Shown: positions 9,607-63,431 of the stretch, piece after piece
Layout: each line of letters opens with the position of its first letter
How positions within the stretch are numbered: the first letter of the stretch is position 1
IMG/VR virus record: IMGVR_UViG_3300032030_002667
Source: an uncultured virus (IMG/VR IMGVR_UViG_3300032030_002667)
Lineage: Duplodnaviria > Heunggongvirae > Uroviricota > Caudoviricetes
DNA length: 64,000 bases
Strand: one strand, 5' to 3'
The notes under the pieces: model-generated
Database searches by the model: none
Told to the model about the DNA's origin: nothing
What the model saw: only the letters and a program-made list of their open reading frames with translations
Program-made: the position numbers and the translations under genes

Positions 9607-10503
9607 ATGCCTAACTGCTCTCCTCTTCAGAAATCGCTTGCGTGGTGCATGGGTAAGCCTGAGCTGCCCGGCATCCGCAAGCGGATTTATTACATCTCGA
9701 AGGACCAGATTGCCGAGTGGCCTACTTATATCCGCGATTATTATAATCGCAGAGCTAAGAAGGCTGCCTACAGGGGTGATTTCGTCCTCGTGGCTGATGC
9801 CAAGTGGAAGTACATTGACATCCTTCCTGAGAAGTCGCAGCTGACTTCGGAGCCACAGGGTGAACTGCCATCACAGACGCAATTGAACAAACTGGTGGCT
9901 GTGTTCCCTGGCGTGAGTCCTGAAGCGTCTGCTGCCGCCTGCTATCTCAACAACAGCGACAATGTATTCCTCGTTGAAGACATGAAGGGCTTCTTCCGTG
10001 TTGTGGGCTGCAGGAAGTGGTTCACCAAGACAATTGTCACACAGGACAATGGCCAGGGGCCTACTGGCAACACTTCTACCACTATCAACGTGGAAGCACC
10101 AGATGAGGTGCCTTCGCCCTTCTACATGGGCATCATCGAAACTGAGGACGGTGATGTCCAAGGGGAAATGTTCGATGATTCAGATGACCCTGAAGTGGTT
10201 CCCATCTATGACAACAACGTTATCATTAATGGACTGGAGTACAATGTCGCTAGTGGTGAAGTGAGCATTCATGGGCCATTGAGAACAATCAACTTCACTG
10301 GTGAGAACATGCAGCAAATCAAAGTGCGCACTGACAATGTCACTGAGTCTATTGCATTGATGAACGCTGATGGCTCTGAAGCTGTATGGAGAGGCGATGT
10401 ACCTGCTCCTACATCCGTGATGGTCAACAAGCGTGTTGGTAATAATGATGAGATTTGGTTCATCTTGGATGTCAATGATATTACTGACCATCAGATGAAA
10501 TGA
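9607..10503 (+). CDS. Tail-tube-like structural protein, copy 1 with ~105-aa C-terminal extension
   Basis: First ~185 aa closely paralogous to 10551-11126; follows capsid. Role inferred from size and context. Confidence 0.6.
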   Translation: MPNCSPLQKSLAWCMGKPELPGIRKRIYYISKDQIAEWPTYIRDYYNRRAKKAAYRGDFVLVADAKWKYIDILPEKSQLTSEPQGELPSQTQLNKLVAVFPGVSPEASAAACYLNNSDNVFLVEDMKGFFRVVGCRKWFTKTIVTQDNGQGPTGNTSTTINVEAPDEVPSPFYMGIIETEDGDVQGEMFDDSDDPEVVPIYDNNVIINGLEYNVASGEVSIHGPLRTINFTGENMQQIKVRTDNVTESIALMNADGSEAVWRGDVPAPTSVMVNKRVGNNDEIWFILDVNDITDHQMK

Positions 10504-10550
10504 TTCTCTAATCTTTAACTCTTAACTCTTAATTCTTAACTCTATAAGTC

Positions 10551-11126
10551 ATGCCACAAAATTGCACTCCTTTCCAAAAGTCGCTTGCTTGGTGCATGGG
10601 CATTCCTGAACTGCCCGGCATTCGCAGGCGCATCTACTACATCTCGAAGGACCAGATTGCTCAGTGGCCGCCTTTCAATCGCGATGACAACTACAGAGCA
10701 AAAACGGCTGTTCTGACTGGCAATTTCACGCTCGTTGCTGATGCCCATTGGAAGTATATCGACATCCTGCCGGATAAGTCGCAACTGACTTCCGAGGCTC
10801 AGGGTGAACTTCCCTGCCAGACGCAGCTCAATAAGCTGGTTGCCGTGCATCCTGGTGTCGGGACAGAAGCTTCGGCCGCTGCCTGCTACTTGAACAACAG
10901 CGACAATGTGTTCATCGTAGAGGACACCAAGGGATGGTATCGCGTCGTAGGCAGCGAGAAGTGGGTCACCAAGACTACTGTCACACAGGACAATGGTCAG
11001 GGCCCCACTGGTACTGTCGCCACCACTATCAATGTGGAGGCTACAGACGAGACACCAGCTCCCTTCTATGTAGGCATCCTCGACACTGAGGATGGTCCCA
11101 TCAACTGTATCCCGTATGACGATTAG
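10551..11126 (+). CDS. Tail-tube-like structural protein, copy 2
   Basis: QKSLAWCMG.PELPGIR.RIYYISKDQIA.WP and later blocks shared with copy 1. Confidence 0.6.
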   Translation: MPQNCTPFQKSLAWCMGIPELPGIRRRIYYISKDQIAQWPPFNRDDNYRAKTAVLTGNFTLVADAHWKYIDILPDKSQLTSEAQGELPCQTQLNKLVAVHPGVGTEASAAACYLNNSDNVFIVEDTKGWYRVVGSEKWVTKTTVTQDNGQGPTGTVATTINVEATDETPAPFYVGILDTEDGPINCIPYDD

Positions 11127-21165: not shown

Positions 21166-22059
21166 CTAATAACGGTATTCTTCTGGAACAATGAAAGTAC
21201 CTTCATTCAGAGAAAATCTATAATGGTCTTGCTGACATTTTATAGTAAATGAACCTCTCACAGACATTTGATACGGGCCTGACCAAGAAGCACATATGTC
21301 GTTACTTATAATAGATATAGACGAATCTGTCATATGTACAGATGTTGTAATAATAGACAGCGCCGATTCGATAGTGTTTCCATCCGTCCATGAAATATGC
21401 AATTCTTCTCGAAATGCATGTATTCCAATGCAGACATATACATCCCCAGCCTTACAGCTGCCATGGAAAACATGAGCATAATTAGTTATAGGAGGATTGG
21501 TTCCACCACTGCCACTGCCACTACCACTGCCACTACCTGAACTTCCGCTACCACTGCCACTACCACTGCCACTACCACTGCCACTACCAGAACTTCCGCT
21601 GCTACTGCCACCACAACCACATCCAGAGCCTGAATTTAAAGTTAAAATAAATACCTGTACGTAACGAATTGTGCCATTTGACTCTATTATCCATCCTCCT
21701 TCCCAGATTCCATTAGCAGCCATTTCGTTGTAGATGGATAGTGGGCATGGATTGCTTTGATAACCCAATGTGCTTTCATATTCTGTTCCGTTGGCATCAA
21801 TATATTTCATAACATTTGGACTGATTCGAACCCATCCTCCTAGCCAAATACATTGTTGTGCCATCTCCCAGTAATAATCATAAGGTATGGGATAACTTTT
21901 CTCGCAGCGATTAGAATATGTGGCCATTGTTTGCGAGTAATAGGTAATTGCTCCTCCATTCTTAACCCAACCGCCTTGCCAATTTTGATTTTGTAACTTT
22001 GAAGTATATTCATTCCATGTGTATGGATTTTTCCTTGATCCTTTTGGTTCCATAATCAT
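21166..22059 (-). CDS. Triple WxGGW-repeat protein with Ser/Gly/Cys-rich linker (B)
   Basis: MEPKGSRKNPYT start, three ~45-aa repeats, SGSGCGCGG then (SG)n linker; no signal peptide. Confidence 0.8.
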   Translation of the reverse strand: MIMEPKGSRKNPYTWNEYTSKLQNQNWQGGWVKNGGAITYYSQTMATYSNRCEKSYPIPYDYYWEMAQQCIWLGGWVRISPNVMKYIDANGTEYESTLGYQSNPCPLSIYNEMAANGIWEGGWIIESNGTIRYVQVFILTLNSGSGCGCGGSSSGSSGSGSGSGSGSGSGSGSSGSGSGSGSGSGGTNPPITNYAHVFHGSCKAGDVYVCIGIHAFREELHISWTDGNTIESALSIITTSVHMTDSSISIISNDICASWSGPYQMSVRGSFTIKCQQDHYRFSLNEGTFIVPEEYRY

Positions 22060-22104
22060 GACATTTTTATGAATTAATAATTATAATATTATGAAAAGAT
22101 TATA

Positions 22105-22947
22105 TCACGGAAGCCTTTGAACTATATACTTACCACGTATATAGTTATCTAATGAAGAAGTGGATTCAATCTGTTTGACGACAGGTGTGCCGCCGACTTC
22201 ATCGAAATCTATCCGATAGTGTTGGCAGAAAGTGTGGGAGAGTTGTCCTTTCTTGTCCTGCCTGCCCATGACGTCATAAGAGGTGGGGCTAATCTTGTCT
22301 GTTTCGATTTGTTTAATATGGAAGTTCTTGTCGAAATATGCCGTACCGTTATATTTAGAGCCGCAAAAGCCATACCCTATATTTTTCCTTGGAGAGAAGT
22401 CCACACGATATACGCCTCTGCCCTTTTCATCGCTAATGCTGTACACTTTTATATGATGCATATGCATCAGTTTTTGAAAGCTCTGAAATACTGCCCCACC
22501 ATCAGCGGCATCAAATTGCACCAACCCTAATATATATTGTCCCTCCATTAAGTCTTTCAGATCATAATACGCATATGTTGTGTCATTGAGGTTTCTTAAG
22601 CGGCGCGGTCCCTCATAGCGGAATTCCTCTCCTTCTCCAGTCGATTTAATCTGTATGTTTGCAACAGCATGAAGAATGCAACTGGAAGTGGTCAAGCGGG
22701 ATGTATGCAGGCCTACGGTAAGCATTACCTGATATTTGCAGCGGACACGCTTTTGCTTGGAATCAAGTATGACCCGTTCTACGATGCTGTCCAGCAAGGC
22801 TTTCGGATGCTTAATTGGAACGATGGACATCGCGCTGATAGAGTCCTCCATCTCCGCAAAGGAGATGGAGGACTGAAGCTCTTGGCTGGAAGCGGACAAG
22901 TCAGCGAATAGCAATATAATAATAAATATAGTATAGCGGCTAATCAT
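22105..22947 (-). CDS. Secreted hypothetical protein (partner A)
   Basis: Hydrophobic signal peptide; 4-bp overlap with the upstream repeat protein. Confidence 0.8.
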   Translation of the reverse strand: MISRYTIFIIILLFADLSASSQELQSSISFAEMEDSISAMSIVPIKHPKALLDSIVERVILDSKQKRVRCKYQVMLTVGLHTSRLTTSSCILHAVANIQIKSTGEGEEFRYEGPRRLRNLNDTTYAYYDLKDLMEGQYILGLVQFDAADGGAVFQSFQKLMHMHHIKVYSISDEKGRGVYRVDFSPRKNIGYGFCGSKYNGTAYFDKNFHIKQIETDKISPTSYDVMGRQDKKGQLSHTFCQHYRIDFDEVGGTPVVKQIESTSSLDNYIRGKYIVQRLP

Positions 22948-23780
22948 ATTTGATAATACTCCATTGGGATAGTGTATCTGCCATCTATTGAATATTCGAG
23001 CTGTTCACTGTCACGCTGAAAAACAATGGTTCCATGAATTGCTACTTCATATGGAGCTACCCATATTGTATCTAAGTCTTTCCGAAGGACACAATATCTA
23101 TAATTGGTCATTTTTGTTGAAACTGTTACTTCTGACAAATTGTTTTGTCCCTGAGTATTTCCTGCTGTCCAAGATATATATAATTTACCGATTCTTGGAT
23201 CATCCTTTATGAGGTAATCTAAAAATTCTCCAACTAAATATTTGCCAGCATTGATAGGGAATCCTTCGGACGAAGAATTGCCACTACCGCTACCGGAACC
23301 GCAGGCAGGACAAGAACCGCTACCTGTCCCAGAACCACATCCGCAACCACAGCCAGAACTAGAATTCATAGTTAAATTAAAGACTTGTAAATAATGACAC
23401 TGTCCATTAGAATCTTGTATCCATCCACCTTCCCAGATTCCGTTTGAAAGCATTTCATTGTATATGGAATATGGGCAAGGGTTGCTTTGAGAGCCTAATG
23501 TGCTATTGTATTCATTGTCATTGGAGTCTAAATACCTCAGGGTAGCTCCGAACAATACCCATCCTCCAAGCCAGATGTGATTTTGCGTCATCTCGTTGTA
23601 GAGGTCACCGGGTACAGGGATGCCTTTTGCACAGCGACCTGTGTATGTATCTGTCAAATTCTTATTCCGATAAATGATGTAATCTGGACTTTCCTTAATC
23701 CATCCACCATTCCAGTTACCGCCAATCTGATTGTACTCAACCAGTGTGTAGGGGTTCTTTCTTGATCCTTTTGGTTCCAT
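22944..23780 (-). CDS. Triple WxGGW-repeat protein with Ser/Gly/Cys-rich linker (A)
   Basis: Paralog of 21166-22059; linker SSSGCGCGCGSGTGSGSCPACGSGSGSG. Confidence 0.8.
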   Translation of the reverse strand: MEPKGSRKNPYTLVEYNQIGGNWNGGWIKESPDYIIYRNKNLTDTYTGRCAKGIPVPGDLYNEMTQNHIWLGGWVLFGATLRYLDSNDNEYNSTLGSQSNPCPYSIYNEMLSNGIWEGGWIQDSNGQCHYLQVFNLTMNSSSGCGCGCGSGTGSGSCPACGSGSGSGNSSSEGFPINAGKYLVGEFLDYLIKDDPRIGKLYISWTAGNTQGQNNLSEVTVSTKMTNYRYCVLRKDLDTIWVAPYEVAIHGTIVFQRDSEQLEYSIDGRYTIPMEYYQI

Positions 23781-43739: not shown

Positions 43740-43767
43740 TATGTTTCACTTACAAAATTACAAAACA

Positions 43768-44724
43768 ATGAAAGCAAATGTTCAGATTTCCGCAGTGAAG
43801 AAAGAGTTCAAGAATGGTCAGCACGGCTGGCAGGTGTTTGTCGAAGGCATGGAGGGTAAGCTCCGCTGTGAAATGAATTTCCGCGATGCGCTTCGTGCAA
43901 TTCGGTACAGTTTCCTTCTCGCTAAGAAGTTGAATCTCCGAATCAATGAAGTACAGCTTGCAGCGCTCTCGCTCGATTACAAGCAGAGCAAGTCAGCTGT
44001 CGAGCAGGCACAGGTCGCAGAGGTGGCTACAGAGGTAGCGCAGGAAGTGGCCGCTGAAGCAGAACAAGGTGAGCCTTCCGATGAAAAGTCGGAGGCCGCC
44101 CATGAGTTCGTCTGCTGCTCAAAGATGCAGAAGTTCCGTCAGGAACATCCTGATGCTGTTGTCATCGGTCGTAAGGGTTCTGTCTGCGAACAGTTCGGAG
44201 AAGATGCTAAGGCTTGCGCTGAAGCTCTCAATAACACTCCAGAAATCCTGTGTGATGACACACTGTATTTCGTCTTCGATATTGAATATCTTGATGAGTG
44301 CATCCAGAAGCTTGTCGCCAGTGGCAAGAAGGTCTGCCTCTGGGACATCTTCAAAGGTGATGATGATTTGGAAGAGTTCAAAGCTATGGTAGAAGCCGAG
44401 ATAGCTCGCAACAAACAAGCTAATTCACCTCTCTTCAAACAGTTTGTCGAGTTAAAGAAGAATCACCCAGATGCACTTCTTCTTTTCCGTAGCGGTGATG
44501 TTTACAAGTGCTACGAAGAAGATGCTATCAAAGCTGCTGAGGTGCTTTGTCTCACTGACATTGTCGAAGAAGACAAAATCACTATCGCAAGCTTCCCGCA
44601 CCACAGTTTAGATACTTATTTGCCACGTCTAATTAGACATGGAATCCGAGTTGCCATCTGTGATCAGCTCGAAGCTCCGAAGCCTAAGAAGCAGGCTCAG
44701 TTGGAATTGTTCGCCAATGTGTGA
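43768..44724 (+). CDS. Protein with two MutS domain I-like repeats
   Basis: LKKNHPDALLLFRSGDVYKCYEEDA...FPHHSLDTYLPRLIRHGIRVAICDQ and a degenerate earlier copy FRQEHPDAVVIGRKG...KLVASGKKVCLWD. Confidence 0.8.
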   Translation: MKANVQISAVKKEFKNGQHGWQVFVEGMEGKLRCEMNFRDALRAIRYSFLLAKKLNLRINEVQLAALSLDYKQSKSAVEQAQVAEVATEVAQEVAAEAEQGEPSDEKSEAAHEFVCCSKMQKFRQEHPDAVVIGRKGSVCEQFGEDAKACAEALNNTPEILCDDTLYFVFDIEYLDECIQKLVASGKKVCLWDIFKGDDDLEEFKAMVEAEIARNKQANSPLFKQFVELKKNHPDALLLFRSGDVYKCYEEDAIKAAEVLCLTDIVEEDKITIASFPHHSLDTYLPRLIRHGIRVAICDQLEAPKPKKQAQLELFANV

Positions 44725-44923
44725 ACAATTCCTTTTCATTACGAACTCACGGCTCATCCGTGAGTTTTTTTGTGTTCGGCTTTGTGGTTTCATAATTTTG
44801 TCGTACCTTTGCAGCAGCATCAAGAGCAGGAGCCTTAGGCTCACTCACCAACCGAGCATAGGATGCCACGGTGGTCAAGGTACGATGCGGAAGAATTATA
44901 TTAACTTCAAAATTATCCTAATT

Positions 44924-45187
44924 ATGAAAGAACATCTTTCCAATCCCGATTTTGCGACTCCTGTTGAGTTTGCTTCTATCCAAGACATCGTAGATAAGCT
45001 GAATTATTCCGTGGGAAACCCCGGATGGTCTTCAGCACGTGCAGCTCATGACATGATGCTCGTTGACATCCTTATAAAAATGGGTGTTGACGTGTCTGAA
45101 ATTAAAAAGGGAAACACGGTTTCCTTCATGCATAAGATCGCTTATGACAAAGAACATAATAAATTGGTGATAGCCGCAGGGAAGTAA
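44924..45187 (+). CDS. Small hypothetical protein, stand-alone transcription unit
   Basis: TACCTTTG at 44804, ATG 44924, terminator near 45212-45256. Confidence 0.65.
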   Translation: MKEHLSNPDFATPVEFASIQDIVDKLNYSVGNPGWSSARAAHDMMLVDILIKMGVDVSEIKKGNTVSFMHKIAYDKEHNKLVIAAGK

Positions 45188-45332
45188 CCCTTCTGCCTAT
45201 CACTGCATCTGAAGCCTTTTCCTGTCGTCTGCTCTTGACGGGGAAAGGCTTTTCTTTTGCTTTTTGAGGAAAATGGCACCGCTCATTTCAAAAATTGTCG
45301 TACCTTTGCAGCGGTTTTAAGGATAACATATT

Positions 45333-45734
45333 ATGAATACGAAAATCATTCTCGCAGTCGTTCTCGCTATTATTGTTGTAACAGCTTGGGCTGTGAATGC
45401 TCATCGTAATAAAGGGTTCAAGACTGTCTCTTCTGAAGAGTTCGCGCAAATCATCGGCGACACGGCCACAGTGCAACTGCTGGACGTGCGCACGAAAGAG
45501 GAATATGAGGAGGGTCATATTGCTGATGCTTTGCTCGTAGATTTCTATTCCTATAACTTCGAGGAGCAGGCGACCGCCAAGCTCTCGAAAGAAAAGGCTG
45601 CGGCTGTCTATTGTCGCAGTGGCCGTCGCAGCGCATCGGCTGCTCAGAAGTTGGTTAAGCTGGGATACGAGGTCATCAATCTTGATGGCGGCATCTTGGC
45701 TTGGCAACGCGCTAAGATGCCCATCGCGAGGTAG
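45333..45734 (+). CDS. Rhodanese-domain protein, moron
   Basis: LLDVRTKEEYEEGHI, VYCRSGRRS, NLDGGILAW; N-terminal membrane anchor. Confidence 0.9.
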   Translation: MNTKIILAVVLAIIVVTAWAVNAHRNKGFKTVSSEEFAQIIGDTATVQLLDVRTKEEYEEGHIADALLVDFYSYNFEEQATAKLSKEKAAAVYCRSGRRSASAAQKLVKLGYEVINLDGGILAWQRAKMPIAR

Positions 45735-46510
45735 TCTTGTTGCATCCTCTTTCAGGTCGCTATGTTTTAGGTGCATTGTCCTTTTTTACTTGTCTGTGAG
45801 GGCTGGTAGCGCTCACTTCTGCTCCGCCTCTAATCCCTCTTCTGCTCGGACTTCCTGCTTAGGCGCGATGCTCTGTTCCGCTCCTGTGCTGCCATTTCAG
45901 CCGTGCCGGACTCACTATGCTTTCCTTTATTCACTCAGGCGATTAACGAGATACTGAGCACATCCCCATGCCACTACTTGGTAGGTTTTCCATTGCATCC
46001 TGTGCCATAGCGTCATCCCATCAGGTGCGCCTGCTTCTACCGCTCATTCTCTTTTCTGCCTTGCTTTCCTCCTTCCGTTTGTCTGGTTCGCCACCGCTCG
46101 GAATGACATCGCTCCTTCTCGCTTGTACTCTCTTCTCTGCCTTAATCCTTTTTCCCATTTGTGTCCACGCCCGTAAGGTAAGGAGGGAAACATTCCCCGC
46201 CCTTTTGCTCATTCCCTTTCTCGGCTCCACTGCTGGCACATTGCTTCACCTCCATCACTCTATATCGTCTCTCTCCAGTACACTTGTTGCTACCCTCTGT
46301 GCAGCATGATTCTATATTCATACCCATCTGCCTTTCTTCGGCAAGCTGCCTCCGTGGGCTTGCTCCGTCTGTCATGCTCTATCTTCTTCATTCTCTCATT
46401 CTTTCATTGCTTCATTCTTCAAATGCTCATGCACTTTCGCTTACCTGTGCCGCTCTTTGCCTGCTTTGTCTCGCGCGTACTTTTGTTTATTAGGTCATAC
46501 TGCTGCCTTC

Positions 46511-46713
46511 GCCTCATTTTTACTTTGCAAAGGTAGCCAAGCCCGTGCCCTGCAAGTACCATTCATCCTTCATTATTAGCGCACTTTTTTCAAAATCTTT
46601 TGGGACAAGCCTCAAAACATTTGCTTTGCCCTCTCGGTGAAATAAGTTCTCAATTCCTTGCATCTGCGCACTTTCCACTTTCGGCTCTCGTATTGCACGT
46701 AAAAATCAGAGGC
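46511..46713. promoter_or_regulatory. Long fold-back C, candidate ssDNA (Frpo-type) promoter
   Basis: GCCTC/GAGGC, ATTTTTAC/GTAAAAAT, TGCAA/TTGCA, AGCC/GGCT, GTGC/GCAC, TGCAAG/CTTGCA; CAAAGGTA at 46528. Confidence 0.72.
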
Positions 46714-46752
46714 TCAATGGCCTACAGTATTAACATTTTAATAAACAAAATT

Positions 46753-47850
46753 ATGAGTACTTACAAGACAAGAAAAGCGCAGGCTAAGAAGGCTGGCGCA
46801 GGTGCTAACAGCGAAAGCGCACAAGAGAGAGCATTGAATCTCTTCGCGGACATGATGATCGAGAAGATTGAGTCTATCATGACAGATTGGAGCAAGCCTT
46901 GGTTCACAGAGGGCATCGCTTCGTGGCCGAAGAATTTATCTGGCAGATGCTACAATGGTATGAACAGCCTCATGCTCCTGATGCACTGTGAGAAGCAAGG
47001 GTACAAGTACCCGGTGTTCTGTACATTCGACAGAGTGATGGGTCTCAATTACAACAAGACATCGGTGGGCAATGTGCCTGCAGTGGATGCCGAGGGGAAT
47101 AAGCGCCCGATGGTGTCGGTCAACAAGGGCGAGAAGAGTTTCCCTGTCTTCCTTACTTGCTTTACGGTCGTCAACAAGGACACGAATGAGAAGATTAAGT
47201 ACGAAGAGTACAAACAGATGCCTGAAAGCGAGAGGGAGCATTACAATGTCTATCCGAGCACAGTGGTTTACAATGTCTTCAACATCGATCAGACAAACAT
47301 GAAGGAGGCAAGGCCGGAGATTTACGAGAAAATCATCCTGGAGAATGGCGGGAAGAAGCAGGAGCACAAGGGAGAAATGTTCCATTTCGATGCTATGGAC
47401 AGAATGATGGAAGAAAATCTCTGGATTTGTCCTATCAAGCAGCTGCATGGGGATAGTGCTTTCTATAGCATCTCCAAGAAGTTAATCGTGCTTCCAGAGT
47501 TCTCGCAGTTCAAGGATGGTGAGTCGTTCTACGGCACGGCGTTCCATGAAATGGCGCACAGCACGGGAGCGGAGGAGCATCTGAATCGGCTGAAGCCTGC
47601 TTCTTTCGGAAGTGCCGAATACGCACAAGAGGAATTGGTGGCAGAGCTGACAAGTGCGATGGTTTGCCAGTACTGCGGTATGGACAAATACATCAAGGAG
47701 GACAGTGCGCCTTATCTCAAATCATGGCTCTCTTCACTTCAGCAGGATGCACAGTACATCAAGACAATCCTGCTCGATGTCAAGAGAGCATCGGCCATGA
47801 TTACAAAGGCAATCGAGGATTGCACCAGTCAGGCAGCACAGGCTGCTTGA
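46753..47850 (+). CDS. ardC: ArdC-family ssDNA-binding antirestriction protein with zincin-like domain
   Basis: WSKPW, PKNLSGRCYNGMN, YNVFNIDQT, AFYS, FHEMAHSTG, YAQEELVAEL, YLKSWL. Confidence 0.9.
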   Translation: MSTYKTRKAQAKKAGAGANSESAQERALNLFADMMIEKIESIMTDWSKPWFTEGIASWPKNLSGRCYNGMNSLMLLMHCEKQGYKYPVFCTFDRVMGLNYNKTSVGNVPAVDAEGNKRPMVSVNKGEKSFPVFLTCFTVVNKDTNEKIKYEEYKQMPESEREHYNVYPSTVVYNVFNIDQTNMKEARPEIYEKIILENGGKKQEHKGEMFHFDAMDRMMEENLWICPIKQLHGDSAFYSISKKLIVLPEFSQFKDGESFYGTAFHEMAHSTGAEEHLNRLKPASFGSAEYAQEELVAELTSAMVCQYCGMDKYIKEDSAPYLKSWLSSLQQDAQYIKTILLDVKRASAMITKAIEDCTSQAAQAA

Positions 47851-51100: not shown

Positions 51101-51331
51101 ATGAAAACTCCAGTAAAAATTCAATACTTCATCGCCGTCGCTGCCTTCCTGGCAGCGGTCGGCTTTGGTATTGCAGGATTCATTGTACCGCCTCCTGGAC
51201 AGGTACATGACTCTGTGCTTTATCTCATAGCACAATTCCTGCTGCTCACTGCATCTATACTCGGTGTAGGTGCTATGTTCGCATCTCAGAAATTGAGTAT
51301 CAAACAATCTCTTGAAAAGAAAGATCTATGA
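51101..51331 (+). CDS. Putative holin (two TM helices)
   Basis: Two hydrophobic segments around VPPPGQVHDS, charged C-terminus, upstream of the endolysin. Confidence 0.65.
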   Translation: MKTPVKIQYFIAVAAFLAAVGFGIAGFIVPPPGQVHDSVLYLIAQFLLLTASILGVGAMFASQKLSIKQSLEKKDL

Positions 51332-51621
51332 ATTATCAACAAATCAATTTCACCTTGGACAATGGCAAGTATGTTGCCTCTGTTCAGCTGAGCGATGTGG
51401 CTGCACTGCACATCGAAAGGGAAGCCGCTGGCAATTTCAGTGCAAAGCAATCATCGCTGCCGGCTTCCTACAATCCTGCCTTTGCCAATCTCGAAGGGCT
51501 GTCTGATTGCTGCTTCATGCCTTCTGTGATGGACTTTGAACTCGCATTCGCTGTCTATCCTAAGTTCATCGAACTGCGCTCAGCTACACCGATCAAAAAA
51601 GCGTATCTGATTACACAGTAA
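51328..51621 (+). CDS. Hypothetical protein
   Basis: 97 aa, 4-bp overlap with the holin. Confidence 0.65.
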   Translation: MNYQQINFTLDNGKYVASVQLSDVAALHIEREAAGNFSAKQSSLPASYNPAFANLEGLSDCCFMPSVMDFELAFAVYPKFIELRSATPIKKAYLITQ

Positions 51622-51673
51622 ATCCTATCTCTTAACTCTTAACTCTTAACTCTTAATTCTTAACTCAACTCCC

Positions 51674-52402
51674 ATGGGAATTCTCATCAAATCCTTCTCC
51701 ACTCAGCCTTCGCTAGTGGGACTGGCGAGGGCTGCCTTGTCAAAGGTATTCAACCCCTCCAACTATTACAGCAAATCGGAGGTGGATGTGCGTGTCAATG
51801 CCAGGCAGCCGGATGTTCATCTGACTGCTACTAACAAGGACACGCTCATGTATAACAATGCGGGCAATCAGGTTACGCAGGAGCGTGATGTCTATAACGG
51901 CACAGCCTTCGGAACAAACAACACGCTCACCAACTACGGTGCCTTCGCTGGCGGACATAGCTGTCAGGTGGGCAACAGGGCAGCTGCTTTCAATTCAAAC
52001 AACACAGCATCGGGCACTAACGCCTTCGCTGAAGGTGGTAGTAACACCGCTAGCGGTGAATGCAGCCATGTCGGCGGTCAGCAGAGCAGAGCTGGCGGTA
52101 AGCGGGCTTTCGCGCATGGATATCAGTGCCAAGCTTCAGGAGAAAACTCCATCGCTATGGGCACTGCTCTTCGCACACAGAACGATGGTGAAGCTGCCTT
52201 CGGACGCTTCAACAGCACTGGTGCCAACATCCGCTTCAGCGTTGGAGGTGGCTCGTCAGACTCGGACAGAAAGAATCTCCTTCAAATCGATGCAGATGGC
52301 ACCATCTACATCCTGATGAACGGCACACCCTTGTCACTGCAGGAGTGCTTGAATTTACTGGCTGACAGGATAGACGCTCTGCAAGGTCCAGGGATAAAGT
52401 AA
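51674..52402 (+). CDS. Short tail-fibre/adhesin with YadA-head-like beta-roll repeats
   Basis: ~14-aa repeats TASGTNAFAEG, TASGECSHVGG, QASGENSIAMG; FSVGGG...RKN. Confidence 0.7.
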   Translation: MGILIKSFSTQPSLVGLARAALSKVFNPSNYYSKSEVDVRVNARQPDVHLTATNKDTLMYNNAGNQVTQERDVYNGTAFGTNNTLTNYGAFAGGHSCQVGNRAAAFNSNNTASGTNAFAEGGSNTASGECSHVGGQQSRAGGKRAFAHGYQCQASGENSIAMGTALRTQNDGEAAFGRFNSTGANIRFSVGGGSSDSDRKNLLQIDADGTIYILMNGTPLSLQECLNLLADRIDALQGPGIK

Positions 52403-52427: not shown

Positions 52428-53480
52428 ATGCGTAAGATTAATGAAATCATCGTCCATTGTGCTGCCACGCGTGAAGGCAGAGACTTCACTGTCGAGGACA
52501 TCACACGATGGCACAAGGCCAGGGGCTTCGTCACAATTGGCTATCACTATGTGATATATCGTGATGGGAGCATCCACGAGGGCCGCCCTCTTGAACAAAT
52601 AGGTGCCCACTGCGTGGGACACAACAAGCATTCCATTGGCATCTGCTACATCGGAGGCTGCGCCTCTGATGGCAAGACACCAAAGGATACGCGCACGCCA
52701 GAGCAGAAGGAGGCATTGCTCGCTCTACTCAGGCGTCTCAAAGCGCGGTTTCCCAATGCCACGATACACGGACATAGGGATTTTGCTGCGAAGGCGTGCC
52801 CCTCGTTTGATGCCAGGTCTGAGTTTCGCAGTCTGGCAGTGACCATCCTGCTCGCTTTTTCGTGGATGCTCCTTTCTTCGTGTCGCTCCACAAAGCGGGT
52901 AGTGAAAGAAAAGGTTGAGGTTGCAATGCAGCAGACTGTATCGCAATCAGCCACTTCTTTCGCTACGGACAAGTTCCTCCAGAACATTGTACTGCATATC
53001 GATAGCATCGTGCTTACATCGATGTCTGTGCCGCAGGTGTCCGAAAACGTCGATGGCACAGTGCTTATCGGACGGACTTCGGACAGCAGCGGCTTGGAGC
53101 CTTGTGCTCGGGAAACTCGCACAAGTGGTTCTTCAGCTAAAGCTTCAGGCGCAGGCGAAGCATCTCTACGCTCAGGCGCAGGGAAGGCGCTACCGCGCAT
53201 TGATGTATCTAAGATAAAGGTGAGCGGCATTCGCCTCCAGTCTGTTACTGCTGACAGCTCCAGCTCCACTACAGCAGTCAGCAGCGAGGGTAATCTACAA
53301 GCCAGCGGACGCTCGCTTGCTAAAGCGAAGGAGGCTAAGAAGCCTTCTACGCTTGCATTCTATTGGATAGTATTCTTAATAATCATCGCCATAGCTGTGG
53401 CTGTCGCCTTTGCTGTGGCTTCAAAAGCAAACCCTTTTCGCTCGGCTGTTCGCTTCATCGTACGGAAAGTTTTGACGTGA
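52428..53480 (+). CDS. N-acetylmuramoyl-L-alanine amidase endolysin fused to a lipoprotein with C-terminal TM (spanin-like)
   Basis: IIVHCAAT, IGYHY, GAHC, SIGICYIGG, GHRD..KACPSF; then hydrophobic stretch and LSSC lipobox (Cys codon 52881); C-terminal TM. Confidence 0.8.
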   Translation: MRKINEIIVHCAATREGRDFTVEDITRWHKARGFVTIGYHYVIYRDGSIHEGRPLEQIGAHCVGHNKHSIGICYIGGCASDGKTPKDTRTPEQKEALLALLRRLKARFPNATIHGHRDFAAKACPSFDARSEFRSLAVTILLAFSWMLLSSCRSTKRVVKEKVEVAMQQTVSQSATSFATDKFLQNIVLHIDSIVLTSMSVPQVSENVDGTVLIGRTSDSSGLEPCARETRTSGSSAKASGAGEASLRSGAGKALPRIDVSKIKVSGIRLQSVTADSSSSTTAVSSEGNLQASGRSLAKAKEAKKPSTLAFYWIVFLIIIAIAVAVAFAVASKANPFRSAVRFIVRKVLT

Positions 53481-53497: not shown

Positions 53498-53830
53498 GTG
53501 TCAGTGAGCACACGGCGAAGAGGACATGAGCCTGCATCACATTCCTTCGGGAAAGAGGTGCAGGCTTTCTTCATGTCCTTTCCTCTGTGGCTCTTATACT
53601 TGGCACATGCAGATGTCACCGCGCAATGTGTGCTTTGGCTCACGCTCACTTTCCTGTGTTTTCGCTCATCATACACACGCGAAAGGCTTGCACCGCACAT
53701 CGCTTTGAAAGAGTGGGCAAAGTGTTTCCTACATATTCCGCTATCATTTGGGGCGAGTTCCCAAAGGGGCGATGCAGGGCGGTCGGGGGGTGGTTACACG
53801 GAAACGAGGGGAAAATTCTTTTTCCCTCGA
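53498..53830. other. Highly structured non-coding region with G-rich motif (candidate cos/pac, oriT or single-strand origin)
   Basis: Stems AGGACATGA/TCATGTCCT, AGCCTGCA/TGCAGGCT with C(TTCG)G loop, TTTGGG/CCCAAA, CGAGGG/CCCTCG; AGGGCGGTCGGGGGGTG near 53776. Confidence 0.5.
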
Positions 53831-54090
53831 CCCTTTTGTTTTGATTTTCAGTGCGTTGGGTTTTTGAGTCCTGGAAAATTTCAATTTCTTCTAAAAACGT
53901 GGTAAGCGTAATTTTTGGGGGGGAACTTATTTGTATATCATATTATATTGAAATTTAAACACACAAGCAATTAGACAGTAAACCATGGGTTACTATCTTT
54001 TGAATTATTAGGAACAAAAGACAAGTATTTTTCCCTTCTTATTATATATATCGCAAATAATTTGTACCTTTGCAAAAAAAAGAGAAAAAT

Positions 54091-54762
54091 ATGACCCCCA
54101 TTATTAAAAATCCATTTTCAAAACTTTTGACTGTAAGAGATTTGGCCACAAAATCATACCAATTAAAATCTCAAAACAAAAATTTAGTTAAAATACTTAT
54201 CATTGATGATAATGATTTCGAGTATGAAAATGAGATGAGAGTATGTGGTTTTAATATTAATTGCGTGCGGGACCTTGAATACTTTAATATGGCTGAACCT
54301 TATCATATTATTATCAGTGATATTACAGGAGTAGGGAAAAAACTAAATTGTAAATACGAAGGTGTAGGGTTAATAAATGCTTTAAAAAAACAATATCCAT
54401 ATAAGCTTTACGGAGTATATACTGGCAATAAGGTTAGTATTGACATTGCTACAGTGTTAAAAGATGTCAAGATTATCACTAAAACCGGATTTGATAAAGA
54501 CGATTGGGAATCTTTACTTGACGAATTCGTAAAAGAGAATAATGATCCGAAAACATGGTGGCTTAAATTACGAGGGGCTCTGCTTGATGAGGATATTTCA
54601 TTATATGAATTAACATTATTAGAACATAAATATGTTAATTATATACTTCATAATAAAACTGATTTCAAAAAATTCCTTGAAGATAATCTTTCTAATGAAT
54701 TGAAATCAGTTCTAATAAATATCAATTTTAACTTTAATAATTCAATCTTGTCAATAGCATGA
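54091..54762 (+). CDS. Receiver-domain-like protein (AT-rich moron)
   Basis: KILIIDDND, IIISDITG, EGVGLI, VYTG, K; very low GC. Confidence 0.7.
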   Translation: MTPIIKNPFSKLLTVRDLATKSYQLKSQNKNLVKILIIDDNDFEYENEMRVCGFNINCVRDLEYFNMAEPYHIIISDITGVGKKLNCKYEGVGLINALKKQYPYKLYGVYTGNKVSIDIATVLKDVKIITKTGFDKDDWESLLDEFVKENNDPKTWWLKLRGALLDEDISLYELTLLEHKYVNYILHNKTDFKKFLEDNLSNELKSVLININFNFNNSILSIA

Positions 54763-55889
54763 TAATATCTCCATTTCCATATAAAGTCATAGGTACAGAT
54801 GAGATAAAAGATGGGTGTGTATTTAACATACCAAATTTTTGCGCAAAAAGACAGAAGAGTATGGATTGTAAACTTTTTTACTCCAAATTGAAATCTTCTA
54901 TCGGAATTCAGAAATGCCCATTTGGATTTTGTGCCGAACGTGTACAATTTGGGGATCAGGATATTTATTTTACATGTCTTAATATTGAAAAACATAGCAA
55001 AAAGAAAGATGCACTTCGACGAATAAAAAATACTGATTTTAATCCTCGTATTTCACTTTCTAAATACGAACAGTTAAAATCATTGTTTAAGGAATCTTTG
55101 ACTAGTAATTGTAATGTGCCAGTTGAATTTAATGAGGCAAAACAATCTGCTCTCTTACAAAATGAACGTGAAGCATTAGATAACGCAATACATGAGATTA
55201 ACAACTTGACTAATCAATTAATCAGCAGAGCTGATAAGTTATCTGATGAAGTATCTGGGAATTTTGATAGAGAACAAATCGAAGTTTTATCGAAAAACAT
55301 CTATGCATTATCTAATCTTTTATCAATAAGGCTTGGTTCTTATAATCTTGAAGTTGATCCTTCCATTATCAAACAAACAACGGAAATAGATATTGCAATT
55401 TTTAAGAAAATAGAAAAAGCATATAAATGCTTACAAGACAGTATAAATAAGAATAAAATTCAAGTTAACCTAAAAGGGAATAGTTATAACAAATACAAAT
55501 CTGGTTCCATGCTTGAAATAGCATTCTTTATTATTTTGGAAAATGCAGTAAAATATTCTCCTAGGGGAGAAACTGTTGATGTTAATTTTTCAGAGATTGA
55601 TGATTCATTAACTGTTACTTTTATTAATTGGGGGCCTAAACCCAGTGATGACGAAATAAAAAAATTGAATATGCGAGGATATAGGAGTAGAAATGTTCAA
55701 AATCAAACTGACATTCAGGGAAGAGGCATCGGTTTGTTTTTGGTACAACAAATATGTGATGCATACAATATCCAATTTCAATATTCAATCGAAAAAACAT
55801 ATAAAAAATTTAATGGAATTATATATGCTCCATTTTCTATTAAACTCATGTTTAAAAACATGATAGTTAATGGTTCACAAATAAATTAG
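54759..55889 (+). CDS. Cytoplasmic histidine kinase-like protein (HATPase_c)
   Basis: AIHEINN H-box, ILENAVKYS N-box, GRGIGLFLV G-box; no TM segment. Confidence 0.8.
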   Translation: MIISPFPYKVIGTDEIKDGCVFNIPNFCAKRQKSMDCKLFYSKLKSSIGIQKCPFGFCAERVQFGDQDIYFTCLNIEKHSKKKDALRRIKNTDFNPRISLSKYEQLKSLFKESLTSNCNVPVEFNEAKQSALLQNEREALDNAIHEINNLTNQLISRADKLSDEVSGNFDREQIEVLSKNIYALSNLLSIRLGSYNLEVDPSIIKQTTEIDIAIFKKIEKAYKCLQDSINKNKIQVNLKGNSYNKYKSGSMLEIAFFIILENAVKYSPRGETVDVNFSEIDDSLTVTFINWGPKPSDDEIKKLNMRGYRSRNVQNQTDIQGRGIGLFLVQQICDAYNIQFQYSIEKTYKKFNGIIYAPFSIKLMFKNMIVNGSQIN

Positions 55890-60165: not shown

Positions 60166-61937
60166 TTATATTGATTAATAAACAGAGGGCTGTCCTGAAG
60201 AAGGGCACTTCTTTTGATTTCATCTCCGAGAACCACTACTTCACGGGGGCTGACAGTTATACGCTCTCCATTACGTTTCCTATCAAGGGATGTGCTGAGA
60301 ACATCGCTATCTTCGGGCATATCTACCGAAAGGACTTCAACTTCGACACGGAGCTGCTGGACTGTGAGATACATGACCAGGACTTCCACAAGTACGGCTC
60401 TGTGTCCATCGTGTCTGTATCTGACTCTGAGGTGAAGACGCAGTTCCTGGAAGGACGCTCTGCATCTAACTATCACTCTTCCCTTGATGAAATCTATATC
60501 AATGAGCTGACGATGCCGTCTCTGCATGATCAGGCGCATTGGCAGGCTTCACATTACTTGCGGCCCTATGCCGAGCAGATGCGGGATGGCAATTACCTCG
60601 GCTATGTCTGCCCGCCGTGGGTGAACAACACTTCCGGTAACATTCAGAATCCGATGGGGGCGTATGGCTCCATCTATTACTATCAGGGTGGAGATCCTTC
60701 TTATGACCCGCCAATCGTTGGCTTCCCGTTCCTTATTGAGGTGATTAAGCAGGTGCTTTCGCGCTCTGGCTATCACTATGACCTTTCTGCCATCGAGAAC
60801 TCGGGTTTCTCTAACCTTATCATCTGTCAGGCTTTTCCCTATGTGTGGCACATGCCTTACATGAATCAGATCCTGCCGCATTGGACGGTGAGCGAGTTCC
60901 TGGAGCAGCTGGAGCTATTCCTGAACGGCACCTTCGAGATTGACCACAAGGCGCGTGAGGTGTCGTTCTCGTTCAATGCGGGTTCTCTTGCTGGGATGAA
61001 TATAGTGCAGATTGACGAGGTCCTTGACAGTCACTCGGTGGAGATTGCCAAGGAGGAGGATATCAAGGACAGCTATGTGGAGCAGAAGAACATCGCTTAT
61101 CAGGACTGCGAACATCACATGTGGAAATTCTATTCTTGCGATTGGGCTACGTCATGTCTTCCGATGCAGGTTTACGCCAATTATGCTGCTATGAAGAGTC
61201 AGCTCAATAGTCTGCTTGTCTGTGCAGGGCCTCTGAATGCATGGCAGTATCGATACATCCACTATTGCAGGGAGGAAGATACGCACTTCGTGCTGAAGTG
61301 TGACCATACTGAGACTGTTGGGGATGTCATTCATCACTATATGCACATCCAGCCTGTCAATATGTTCAGGCCACGCATCTTCAACGGCAATGACAATGCT
61401 GATGTGGTGGAGCTGGGCATCGTGCCGGCTTGTATTGACTTTACAGACGAAGTAAATGGCAGTATGCTATTTGTTGACTGCGGCACGCTGGGGGATGACG
61501 TGGAGGATGCGGAAGACAGGGATGAGAACCAGACGCAGGCTGTCAATACGCTTGCCATCGGAGAACAGGAGAAGAAGGAGGAGTACTTCGACAAGATTCA
61601 TGTGGGCTTCTGGGATGGTACTTACATCAAGTATCATCCACAAATGCCACACCCGTATGTGGACAGGCATGAAGTGAGGCCTGACAATACTTATACTTAC
61701 AATATGTATTCCATGCGGCTTGCTGGCAAGGAAATGGCTACCACAAGGACTACGCATTTCTTCGTGAATCAGCAGCGGAAGTTCACGTTCTCGTTCCTCG
61801 CTGATACTGTACCCGATGTGCATAGCATCTTCCTCATTCACGGCAAGAAGTACCTGGCTGAGAAGATAGCAGCGACCTTCTCTGCCGAAACAGGAAGGTC
61901 GCGTGTGTTGAAGCTTGTCTGCTATCAGATGTTCTAG
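60162..61937 (+). CDS. Putative tail tip/baseplate protein
   Basis: 591 aa with 4-bp overlap to the tape measure gene. Confidence 0.65.
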   Translation: MIILINKQRAVLKKGTSFDFISENHYFTGADSYTLSITFPIKGCAENIAIFGHIYRKDFNFDTELLDCEIHDQDFHKYGSVSIVSVSDSEVKTQFLEGRSASNYHSSLDEIYINELTMPSLHDQAHWQASHYLRPYAEQMRDGNYLGYVCPPWVNNTSGNIQNPMGAYGSIYYYQGGDPSYDPPIVGFPFLIEVIKQVLSRSGYHYDLSAIENSGFSNLIICQAFPYVWHMPYMNQILPHWTVSEFLEQLELFLNGTFEIDHKAREVSFSFNAGSLAGMNIVQIDEVLDSHSVEIAKEEDIKDSYVEQKNIAYQDCEHHMWKFYSCDWATSCLPMQVYANYAAMKSQLNSLLVCAGPLNAWQYRYIHYCREEDTHFVLKCDHTETVGDVIHHYMHIQPVNMFRPRIFNGNDNADVVELGIVPACIDFTDEVNGSMLFVDCGTLGDDVEDAEDRDENQTQAVNTLAIGEQEKKEEYFDKIHVGFWDGTYIKYHPQMPHPYVDRHEVRPDNTYTYNMYSMRLAGKEMATTRTTHFFVNQQRKFTFSFLADTVPDVHSIFLIHGKKYLAEKIAATFSAETGRSRVLKLVCYQMF

Positions 61938-63064
61938 AGTATGGATGAAGCCAGAACTTCAGAATGTCGTTGAACTGTGGTCTTCAGAATCTTACAATAA
62001 ATTTGAGTCGTTTTTATGTCACTATGGCCTAACATCCGTGAAATGTCCTCTATTGGCACGTCATGGGCTAAGGCCAATGTGGCAAAGCTGTGACGAGCCA
62101 AATGGAAGGTCAGACTCTTCTTGAATCCGCATTGCACCTCAATGACATGAAGATAGTCATTCGCCTTCTGATTCGTTATCTTCGGCAATTTGAAATCGTA
62201 TTTCTTCAAGACATCCATGGCTGGTTTCAAAATGGGTGTATAAAACTCTGTTCCTGTCTTTAAGCGTTCACTGTCTATGTAGTACAGACGTCCAATTTTG
62301 TGTGTCATTTTCTTAAAGTCAAAGCGTTGTACATCTGCATAAGCCATACCAGTATAGGCTGCAAAGATAAATAAGTCACGCACGCGGTCTAACTTGTCTA
62401 TTAACTGTACCTTGCGCATTTTCAGTAATTCCTGTTCTGTTAGCGGAGTCCTTGGCTTGCTATGCCCACGAGAAATCTTGCAATACTCATAAGGGTCATG
62501 TTCTATAATTTCATTGAGCTTCAGAATGCGAGTGTACTTCTTGATGCGCTTGTGATAGTTCCATATAGTTACTTCTGTACGCTCTCCTGTGTCGTGGAGC
62601 CAACGGTCAAAGGCTCGGATATTGGCAGGAGTGAGGTCAGCTATTGTCTTGATCTTACCATAGGACACTAAGGTATCAAGAACAAGTTTTTTGTGACGCA
62701 ATGTGCCTTCCCGCAATTTCTCGCGTTTGATTTCACTACGCATGAATTCAATAAAATCTCGTTCAAGGGGAGTTTCTTTAACTTTTTTACACTTCTCTTC
62801 TTCAATATAGGCATTGAAATTTTCGATAGTCAAATCCTCACCAAGAATCCTCATGGCACGGACAATTTCCTCATAGTGCTCTAGCTGAAGTTCAAGTTCT
62901 CTGCTGTGCTGATAGGTTTTCCAACCTGCTTTTGTAGTTGAGCCGACAACAATGTACTTACGAACATTCCTATCAAGGTAAACCCTAATCTCAACTTTGC
63001 CACGTCCTTTCTTTGCCGCGACACCCTTCCTGTCAAAAATGACTGATACGTTTTTTTGCTGCAT
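61934..63064 (-). CDS. int: Tyrosine integrase (Bacteroidetes type)
   Basis: RDLFIFAAYTGMAYAD, RLKT, TFHLARHSFAT, LGHSDIKTTQIY; adjacent to att/tRNA. Confidence 0.93.
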   Translation of the reverse strand: MQQKNVSVIFDRKGVAAKKGRGKVEIRVYLDRNVRKYIVVGSTTKAGWKTYQHSRELELQLEHYEEIVRAMRILGEDLTIENFNAYIEEEKCKKVKETPLERDFIEFMRSEIKREKLREGTLRHKKLVLDTLVSYGKIKTIADLTPANIRAFDRWLHDTGERTEVTIWNYHKRIKKYTRILKLNEIIEHDPYEYCKISRGHSKPRTPLTEQELLKMRKVQLIDKLDRVRDLFIFAAYTGMAYADVQRFDFKKMTHKIGRLYYIDSERLKTGTEFYTPILKPAMDVLKKYDFKLPKITNQKANDYLHVIEVQCGFKKSLTFHLARHSFATLALAHDVPIEDISRMLGHSDIKTTQIYCKILKTTVQRHSEVLASSIL

Positions 63065-63355: not shown

Positions 63356-63380
63356 TGAGCCTCTTGTCGGATTCGAACCA
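63356..63380. repeat. att core, right copy
   Basis: Identical to 813-837; overlaps the tRNA T-arm and acceptor stem. Confidence 0.95.
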
Positions 63381-63431
63381 ACGACCCCGAGATTACAAAT
63401 CACGTGCTCTGGCCAACTGAGCTAAAGAGGC
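63358..63431 (-). tRNA. tRNA-Thr(TGT)
   Basis: GCCTCTTTAGCTCAGTTGGCCAGAGCACGTGATTTGTAATCTCGGGGTCGTTGGTTCGAATCCGACAAGAGGCT; cloverleaf with TGT anticodon. Confidence 0.95.

Follow-up and report, generated by a model that had tools for sequence, protein, structure and literature searches.

A conserved in-frame fusion of a T7-type amidase to a predicted u-spanin-like lipoprotein in the lysis cassette of a Bacteroidales prophage

Lysis by phages of Gram-negative bacteria is described in terms of a separate holin, endolysin, and spanin. In the accessible text of Kongari et al. 2018 (PMC6139136), u-spanins, with T1 gp11 as the prototype, carry a lipobox of the form [LVI][ASTVI][GAS]C, a periplasmic region, and a C-terminal transmembrane (TM) segment, and the same text reports, as a descriptive count, a periplasmic Cys in 0 of 58 u-spanins. 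The u-spanin periplasmic domain is predicted to be mainly beta. Spanin searches, as outlined in that text, rely on an N-terminal signal, and lipoproteins mature by way of Lgt and then LspA, as laid out in the accessible part of PMC6963605. The Bacteroides phage BV01 has a "holin-lysin-spanin operon" according to the part of PMC8354205 that is accessible. A natural endolysin-spanin fusion was not found in the literature searched, which covered few subscription papers.

We analyzed a 64,000-nucleotide stretch of DNA from an uncultured virus (here referred to as the window) in which an open reading frame at 52428 to 53480 on the plus strand translates without a stop into 350 aa. Residues 1 to 135 (52428 to 52832; net charge +7) match T7-lysozyme-type Zn amidases in profile, PDB, and structure comparisons: Amidase_2 of Pfam matches residues 1 to 136 with an E value of 2e-16 (60.8 bits vs a curated cut-off of 26), the PHROG 822 amidase matches the N-terminal domain with an E value of 6e-62, and T7 lysozyme is both the closest solved structure by sequence (1lba; E 1e-31) and the best match by fold in a structure search. 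H10, Y39, H116, K122, and C124 align with active-site positions of T7 lysozyme (1lba), and from this alignment we take H10, H116, and C124 to be Zn ligands and Y39 and K122 to be catalytic positions. Judged by its sequence, the N-terminal half is a member of the T7-type Zn amidase family. The protein begins directly with the amidase, and the membrane helix comes after it. Residues 136 to 151 (52833 to 52880) are a 16-residue hydrophobic stretch with a mean hydropathy of 2.0 and no Lys or Arg, predicted to be an internal signal h-region with the lipobox residues LSS; the complete lipobox, LSSC, ends in Cys152 (52881 to 52883), the predicted site of lipidation and signal peptidase II cleavage. 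The predicted periplasmic region (residues 153 to 313; 52884 to 53366) consists of two Ser/Thr-rich conserved arms, with the motifs IDSIV and KxxVSGIRL, flanking a variable loop, and Ser and Thr make up 27% of residues 153 to 310. The remainder (53367 to 53480) holds a C-terminal TM helix (residues 314 to 332), a basic amphipathic tail, and the stop. From residue 314, the TM hydropathy is 3.09 in the window ORF and 2.2 to 3.2 in 15/15 complete fused representatives, and the TM is a confident helix in the AlphaFold2 model. The translation bears out the initial annotation, which had read an amidase running stop-free into a hydrophobic helix, a lipobox with Cys152, a Ser/Thr-rich region, and a C-terminal TM.

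For comparison, we chose 160 loci by their amidase (the best 80 of 483 and the best 80 of 552), among which 4 were fused, 1 had an unrelated long frame, and 155 had an amidase that stops at 132 to 150 aa. After removal of 10 loci with too little downstream DNA, 91 of 145 unfused loci had a lipoprotein with a C-terminal TM within 500 bases 3' of the amidase, and this downstream gene often overlaps the amidase stop by 4 bases. Matches to the periplasmic motifs, together with the 4 amidase-chosen fused loci, gave 39 loci. To the question raised in the initial annotation, whether homologs show a conserved fusion or two genes, the answer is that 38 of these 39 loci, all with the C-terminal part, show the fusion, and one is 5'-truncated before the junction. 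With four duplicates set aside, together with the truncated locus and another that the motif search had missed, 34 distinct coding sequences (CDS) including the window remained, of which 17 with <90% nucleotide identity to each other (range, 56 to 89%) served as representatives for all counts of 17 below. H10, Y39, H116, C124, and C152 are invariant in all 34 CDS, K122 is present in 30 and replaced by Arg in 4, and all 248 of the long proteins listed have both the catalytic motifs and the lipobox. Compared with [LVI][ASTVI][GAS]C, the lipobox is exact in 23 of the 34 CDS and has Phe at −3 in 11. The dN/dS ratio is 0.10 for the amidase, 0.38 for the h-region, 0.35 and 0.32 for the periplasmic arms, 0.47 for the TM and tail, and 0.83 for the variable periplasmic loop. 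Both halves of the fusion are under purifying selection.

An assembly artefact, or a recent nonfunctional fusion in a decaying prophage, has to be weighed because a small indel would suffice to fuse amidase and lipoprotein genes that often overlap by 4 nt in relatives. We consider this explanation extremely improbable, and the conservation data refute it. Run X2 of a different study yielded a contig that covers 52435 to 52978 with 0 differences and 0 gaps, including the region near 52830 for which the initial annotation had called for read support, and 119 best non-self homologs (from the best 120 of 3589 matches) are all 340 to 362 aa long with 99 to 100% coverage. Because an identical independent contig crosses the junction and the homologs are full length, the fused frame is not an assembly error. 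The recent fusion by deletion that had been offered as an alternative is not supported, given the 56 to 89% nucleotide identity of fused copies and an amidase dS near saturation; the 17 fused lineages at <90% nucleotide identity and the purifying selection on both halves likewise argue against it, and the presence of both att sites argues against a decaying prophage. Contigs X15 and X18 from RNA runs cover both halves of related alleles and are uninformative on transcription or strand. We conclude that the fusion is a real, old, and selected gene fusion and a new lysis-cassette architecture made from known parts.

The relation to stand-alone lipoproteins is fainter. Of 88 stand-alone lipoproteins, 18 matched the fused mature part at E<1e-3 over the whole and 3 without the TM, and the best score was 20.5 bits vs 12.4 for shuffles; the fused mature part appears weakly homologous to them. 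P0126, one of 7 representatives, is a homolog that stands alone and carries a normal signal peptide. Neither the C-terminal part nor P0126, used as single-sequence queries in locus searches of viral contigs, gave a match, and among the 401 genomes of the family of G001 that were searched, the fusion was found in G001 alone. The fused proteins also vary in layout. In L191, L192, and L195 (as well as L190 and P0123), a 60- to 120-residue Ser/Thr/Ala/Pro linker separates the amidase from the signal; P0123 has a Cys-rich insert in the amidase, and ATG and ACG alternate ahead of the helix in these long-linker forms. P0125 and P0128 are 247-aa fusions without most of the periplasmic region that have kept the lipobox and TM.

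The gene lies within a ~62.5-kb Bacteroidales prophage that has a 23-base repeat of a tRNA-Thr end at each boundary. The left att repeat, a copy of the tRNA-Thr 3' end, is at 814 to 836; the right one (63357 to 63379) lies within tRNA-Thr(TGT) (63357 to 63431, minus strand), which adjoins the integrase gene (61934 to 63064, minus strand). Profile matches identified genes for an integrase, a primase, a head protease, a terminase-like protein, and a tape-measure protein. Named relatives are rumen Bacteroidales genomes, and the best-matching sequencing runs are from sheep and cattle gut. Among 50,697 isolated phages, none had a record covering 80% of the fusion protein, and none matched the candidate capsid gene of the prophage. 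About 22 kb of cargo (13661 to 35318) separates the terminase-like gene from other structural genes and includes genes for Abi-like, PHP-ATPase, Stealth, DUF6734, BspA LRR, papain-like protease, T9SS-sorted, FRG, and Fic proteins. We also note tandem paralogous gene pairs at 9607 to 11126 (9607/10551) and 21166 to 23780 (21166/22944 with 20248/22105), as well as genes for a MutS domain I protein, a rhodanese, and ArdC-like antirestriction proteins at 43741 to 47850.

Upstream of the fusion, a 76-aa ORF with two TM segments (51101 to 51331, plus strand) is the sole small two-TM ORF in the window. Homologs lie upstream in 36 of the 39 fused loci, directly adjacent in 32, and the one in L001 has a weak, under-cut-off match to a Pfam holin (E 0.002); based on topology and this sub-threshold match, we consider the ORF a holin candidate. 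Between it and the fusion is a two-gene insert (51328 to 52402, plus strand) encoding 97 aa and 242 aa, the latter with YadA-head-like repeats, which among relatives is confined to the subgroup of the window. A short TAACTCT-type tandem repeat at 51626 to 51668 is common to many unrelated contigs (very high depth and loose ends). Directly 3' of the fusion stop, a strong hairpin (53506 to 53593, plus strand; −52.6 kcal/mol, z −5.6) is a probable terminator, and a low-GC two-gene insert at 54070 to 55889, with a receiver-like ORF and an HATPase protein, separates the lysis cassette from the tape-measure gene. No second endolysin was detected among 53 window ORFs scanned with Pfam (small ORFs in part), and a six-frame scan of the window gave no other spanin-like lipoprotein.

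Our preferred reading, to which we give slightly better than an even chance, is that the gene encodes one polyprotein that receives a lipid at Cys152 and is cleaved by signal peptidase II into an endolysin and a u-spanin. In an ancestral holin-amidase-u-spanin cassette, the stop separating amidase from spanin would have disappeared, and one start codon would now give endolysin and spanin at 1:1. The basic amidase would remain cytoplasmic and act as an oversized signal n-region, Sec would insert residues 136 to 151 N-in, Lgt would lipidate Cys152, and LspA would cleave ahead of it. The C-terminal product would be a normal u-spanin with its lipid in the outer membrane and its TM in the inner membrane, while cleavage would leave the amidase attached to the signal helix and facing the cytoplasm. 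Peptidases of the RseP/SppA type have a role in removing signal-peptide remnants, and a signal-peptide peptidase of this type would probably free the amidase from its remnant; in the literature searched, we found no paper on a role of RseP/SppA in freeing such a protein. The freed amidase would reach the cell wall once the holin opens the inner membrane. Apparent from the sequence itself are the fused frame, the intact catalytic residues, the invariant lipobox Cys, the C-terminal TM, the adjacent holin-like gene, and a signal that has lost its own basic n-region. Comparative evidence supports, at the level of prediction, the u-spanin topology and the single polypeptide with the endolysin as signal n-region that the initial annotation had put forward. 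Residues +2 to +7 relative to Cys are net positive in 17/17 representatives, and the predicted mature part therefore lacks a surface-export signal as defined in the accessible part of PMC5080379. One observation goes against the polyprotein: in most copies, the ten residues that follow Cys match or exceed in basicity the ten that lead into the helix, and this charge distribution does not itself favor N-in insertion.

Whether the lipoprotein could instead have its own start depends on the junction. The GTG at 52839, previously suggested as an internal start, is in frame, yet 7 of 39 fused loci have GTG at this codon and a further 7 have ATG; we rejected this GTG because it is not conserved. An ATG near the junction is exchanged for ACG, AAG, or ACC among close relatives. 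In favor of the polyprotein, 9 of the 39 loci have no in-frame ATG, GTG, or TTG 45 to 9 codons ahead of Cys. A better candidate, missed in the initial annotation, appears to be the CTG codon of Leu136 (52833 to 52835), at which the final residue of the ancestral amidase coincides with the first of the ancestral signal peptide. Weak internal initiation at CTG136 would make a separate short lipoprotein as the working spanin, with the full-length product serving as a membrane-tethered or processed endolysin that is still made as a fusion alone. We regard this dual start as the main rival to the polyprotein and nonetheless as unlikely, at roughly one chance in five. The Leu136 codon is CTG in 33/34 and TTG in 1/34 fused genes, a single synonymous change that is tied for the lowest of 39 degenerate columns; other conserved Leu columns use 3 to 5 codons, and the equivalent codon in unfused genes is TTA or CTA in 24/31. 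Position −3 of CTG136 is A in 10/17, vs 0/25 for other CTGs and 21/69 for unfused equivalents. This A and the constancy of the codon fit a weak start and count against the polyprotein. Initiation at CTG136 would place Cys at position 17, which is typical of stand-alone genes, and the P0124 and P0127 proteins, which are of stand-alone length, were called as starting with Met at the Leu136 position with no basic residue, a start call that also counts against the polyprotein. Against this, a CTG is also the expected remnant of a small deletion in an ancestral stop/start overlap, as we infer it, and is retained in three long-linker copies 76 to 137 codons ahead of Cys. The site is structured (dG −10.5 vs −2.4 at the true start), and the product would have no basic n-region. 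The A-rich sequence upstream of CTG136 was rejected as proof of a start because fused and unfused genes are equally rich (0.44 against 0.42). CTG136 may be a fusion scar or a weak start.

Under the polyprotein and the dual start alike, the endolysin would exist as a fusion alone. No slippery heptamer or homopolymer run was present at the junction in 17/17 representatives; on this basis, we rejected frameshifting or slippage as a source of free amidase and see no obvious route to it. A Lys or Arg between Leu136 and Cys occurs in 1 of 31 short-junction fused CDS vs 87 of 88 stand-alone signals, a lenient count that accepted any start within 40 codons and includes nonindependent kin. At position 134, a Lys or Arg is present in 16/17 fused vs 48/86 unfused amidases (kin again being nonindependent); the one fused amidase that lacks it belongs to a long-linker form, in which a Lys lies directly ahead of the helix.

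In a second rival to the polyprotein, the fusion would stay unsplit as a two-helix inner-membrane protein with its amidase tethered N-in or, like a reversed SAR endolysin, N-out, and the C-terminal part would anchor or localize the enzyme rather than bridge the membranes. No description of LspA cleavage downstream of a folded domain of 135 residues was found in the literature searched, the charge after Cys is +0 to +4 in 16/17, and the P0125 and P0128 family keeps the lipobox and TM despite having lost most of the periplasmic region, all of which would fit an uncleaved protein. We nevertheless judge this reading improbable: Cys152 never varies and has a small residue ahead of it in every copy, in other fusion groups too, and the h-region is merely 13 to 16 residues long. 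Moreover, the net charge of the amidase is +2 to +10 across fused copies, which, under the established positive-inside rule, makes N-out export of the amidase unlikely.

A third rival accepts the processing proposed for the polyprotein and holds that the released lipoprotein is another lysis or envelope accessory rather than a membrane-fusing spanin. No family library searched named the C-terminal part a spanin, and it had no sequence match to gp11 or any other named spanin. AlphaFold2, run twice (with 11 and with 50 rows), assigned no confident fold to the periplasmic part, with pLDDT <50 over most of it; helix and strand propensities are equal (0.99 and 0.98), a fold search with the fusion model returned matches for the amidase alone, and ESM Atlas matches were exclusively hypothetical Bacteroidota clusters, with a score of 0.86 to 0.87 for the fused part that we treat as a lead and no more. 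At least one periplasmic Cys is present in 14/15 fused proteins and 36/88 stand-alone relatives, and the former count, set against the 0/58 u-spanins given in the accessible text of PMC6139136, also speaks against the polyprotein, as does the missing spanin name in the family libraries searched. Furthermore, some related fusions lie between host housekeeping genes with no virion genes nearby. Yet the last place in a holin-endolysin cassette together with a lipobox and C-terminal TM is how u-spanins are called in the accessible text of that study, and the fusion is the sole such candidate in the prophage; we accordingly give the accessory function only a slim chance.

A search with a distant amidase for long forms gave 68 new proteins, all with a lipobox and C-terminal TM. 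In 6 of the 68, the periplasmic part scored <8 bits against the model of the window's group, the rest scoring at least 155, and five of these six form one clade (100/99), one member of which adjoins a P22-like portal gene and an SU10-type capsid gene. A 7-kb island (L318:9555-16645) lies between host genes and comprises the SU10-type capsid, the P22-like portal, three unknown genes, and the fused amidase; no terminase or integrase was seen in it. In a survey of the Muribaculaceae family (amidase match in 222 of 401 genomes; 43 matched places read), we found four more fusions (L319:4322-5588, L320:2497-3757, L305:1723-3013, and L203:284-1508), each with a Phage_holin_4_1-like gene followed by an amidase-lipoprotein fusion among host housekeeping genes, and with no virion genes within the DNA fetched. 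These minimal cassettes are possibly lysis modules kept by the host. A single clade of all fusions was narrowly rejected (AU p 0.035; fast searches on a reduced set), pairwise unions of fusion groups were not rejected (p 0.28 and 0.24), and the periplasmic parts of the groups retain faint mutual similarity. For the window's group, the amidase alone gives weak support for monophyly (SH-aLRT 92, one unfused row falling within the group; 43/18 in another tree), and monophyly was not rejected (p 0.70). Several origins of the endolysin-lipoprotein fusion appear likely, and fusions with other partners in the Muribaculaceae are possibly independent in origin. The broadest version of the polyprotein reading, which we put a little short of an even chance, is that Bacteroidales phages have more than once made a whole folded endolysin the n-region of the lipoprotein signal of their spanin, that host Lgt and signal peptidase II mature the lysis polyprotein, and that the leftover helix holds the endolysin at the cytoplasmic side, by the holin, until release.

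A conserved endolysin-spanin polyprotein would add an architecture to the separate genes by which Gram-negative phage lysis is described, and lipoprotein maturation would then work on a signal that follows a folded enzyme and lies 135 residues from the start of the protein. Homologs of the fusion, where named at all, are labeled amidases alone, and because spanin searches use N-terminal signals, phages with the fusion would be scored as spanin-less. The fusion would explain such a blind spot in annotation.

Compared with known systems, the fusion has the same gene order as the stand-alone amidase and lipoprotein/TM pairs of Bacteroidales prophages, but those are two genes with their own starts and a lipoprotein with its own basic n-region, which the fusion lacks. 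As in SAR endolysins (phage 21 R, in the accessible text of PMC6139136), one weakly hydrophobic helix would hold an endolysin at the inner membrane until lysis; however, the SAR helix is N-terminal and uncleaved and its enzyme is periplasmic, whereas in the fusion the helix lies C-terminal to the enzyme and terminates in a lipobox, with the enzyme predicted to be cytoplasmic. The fusion keeps the active-site positions of T7 lysozyme gp3.5 and other Amidase_2 endolysins (1lba, 1aro; PHROG 822), but T7 lysozyme is a free soluble protein and the amidase of the fusion continues into a membrane signal. Like the u-spanins as represented by T1 gp11 in the accessible text, the fusion has a lipobox, a periplasmic region, a C-terminal TM, and the last place in a holin-endolysin cassette, the endolysin being fused and a holin-like two-TM gene lying upstream in 36/39 loci. 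Unlike in T1 gp11, in which that text places the signal at the N terminus, the lipoylation signal is internal, with Cys152 behind a 135-aa enzyme, with no conserved canonical start ahead of it, and would be N-terminal solely after the proposed cleavage or with a CTG start; the fusion also has periplasmic Cys and no sequence match to gp11 or any named family. Because its signal is not N-terminal, periplasmic Cys occurs in 14/15 proteins, the periplasmic part has no confident fold, and the function is predicted, we do not file the fusion as a member of the u-spanins. It may best be likened to a T7-type endolysin joined to a T1 gp11-type u-spanin.
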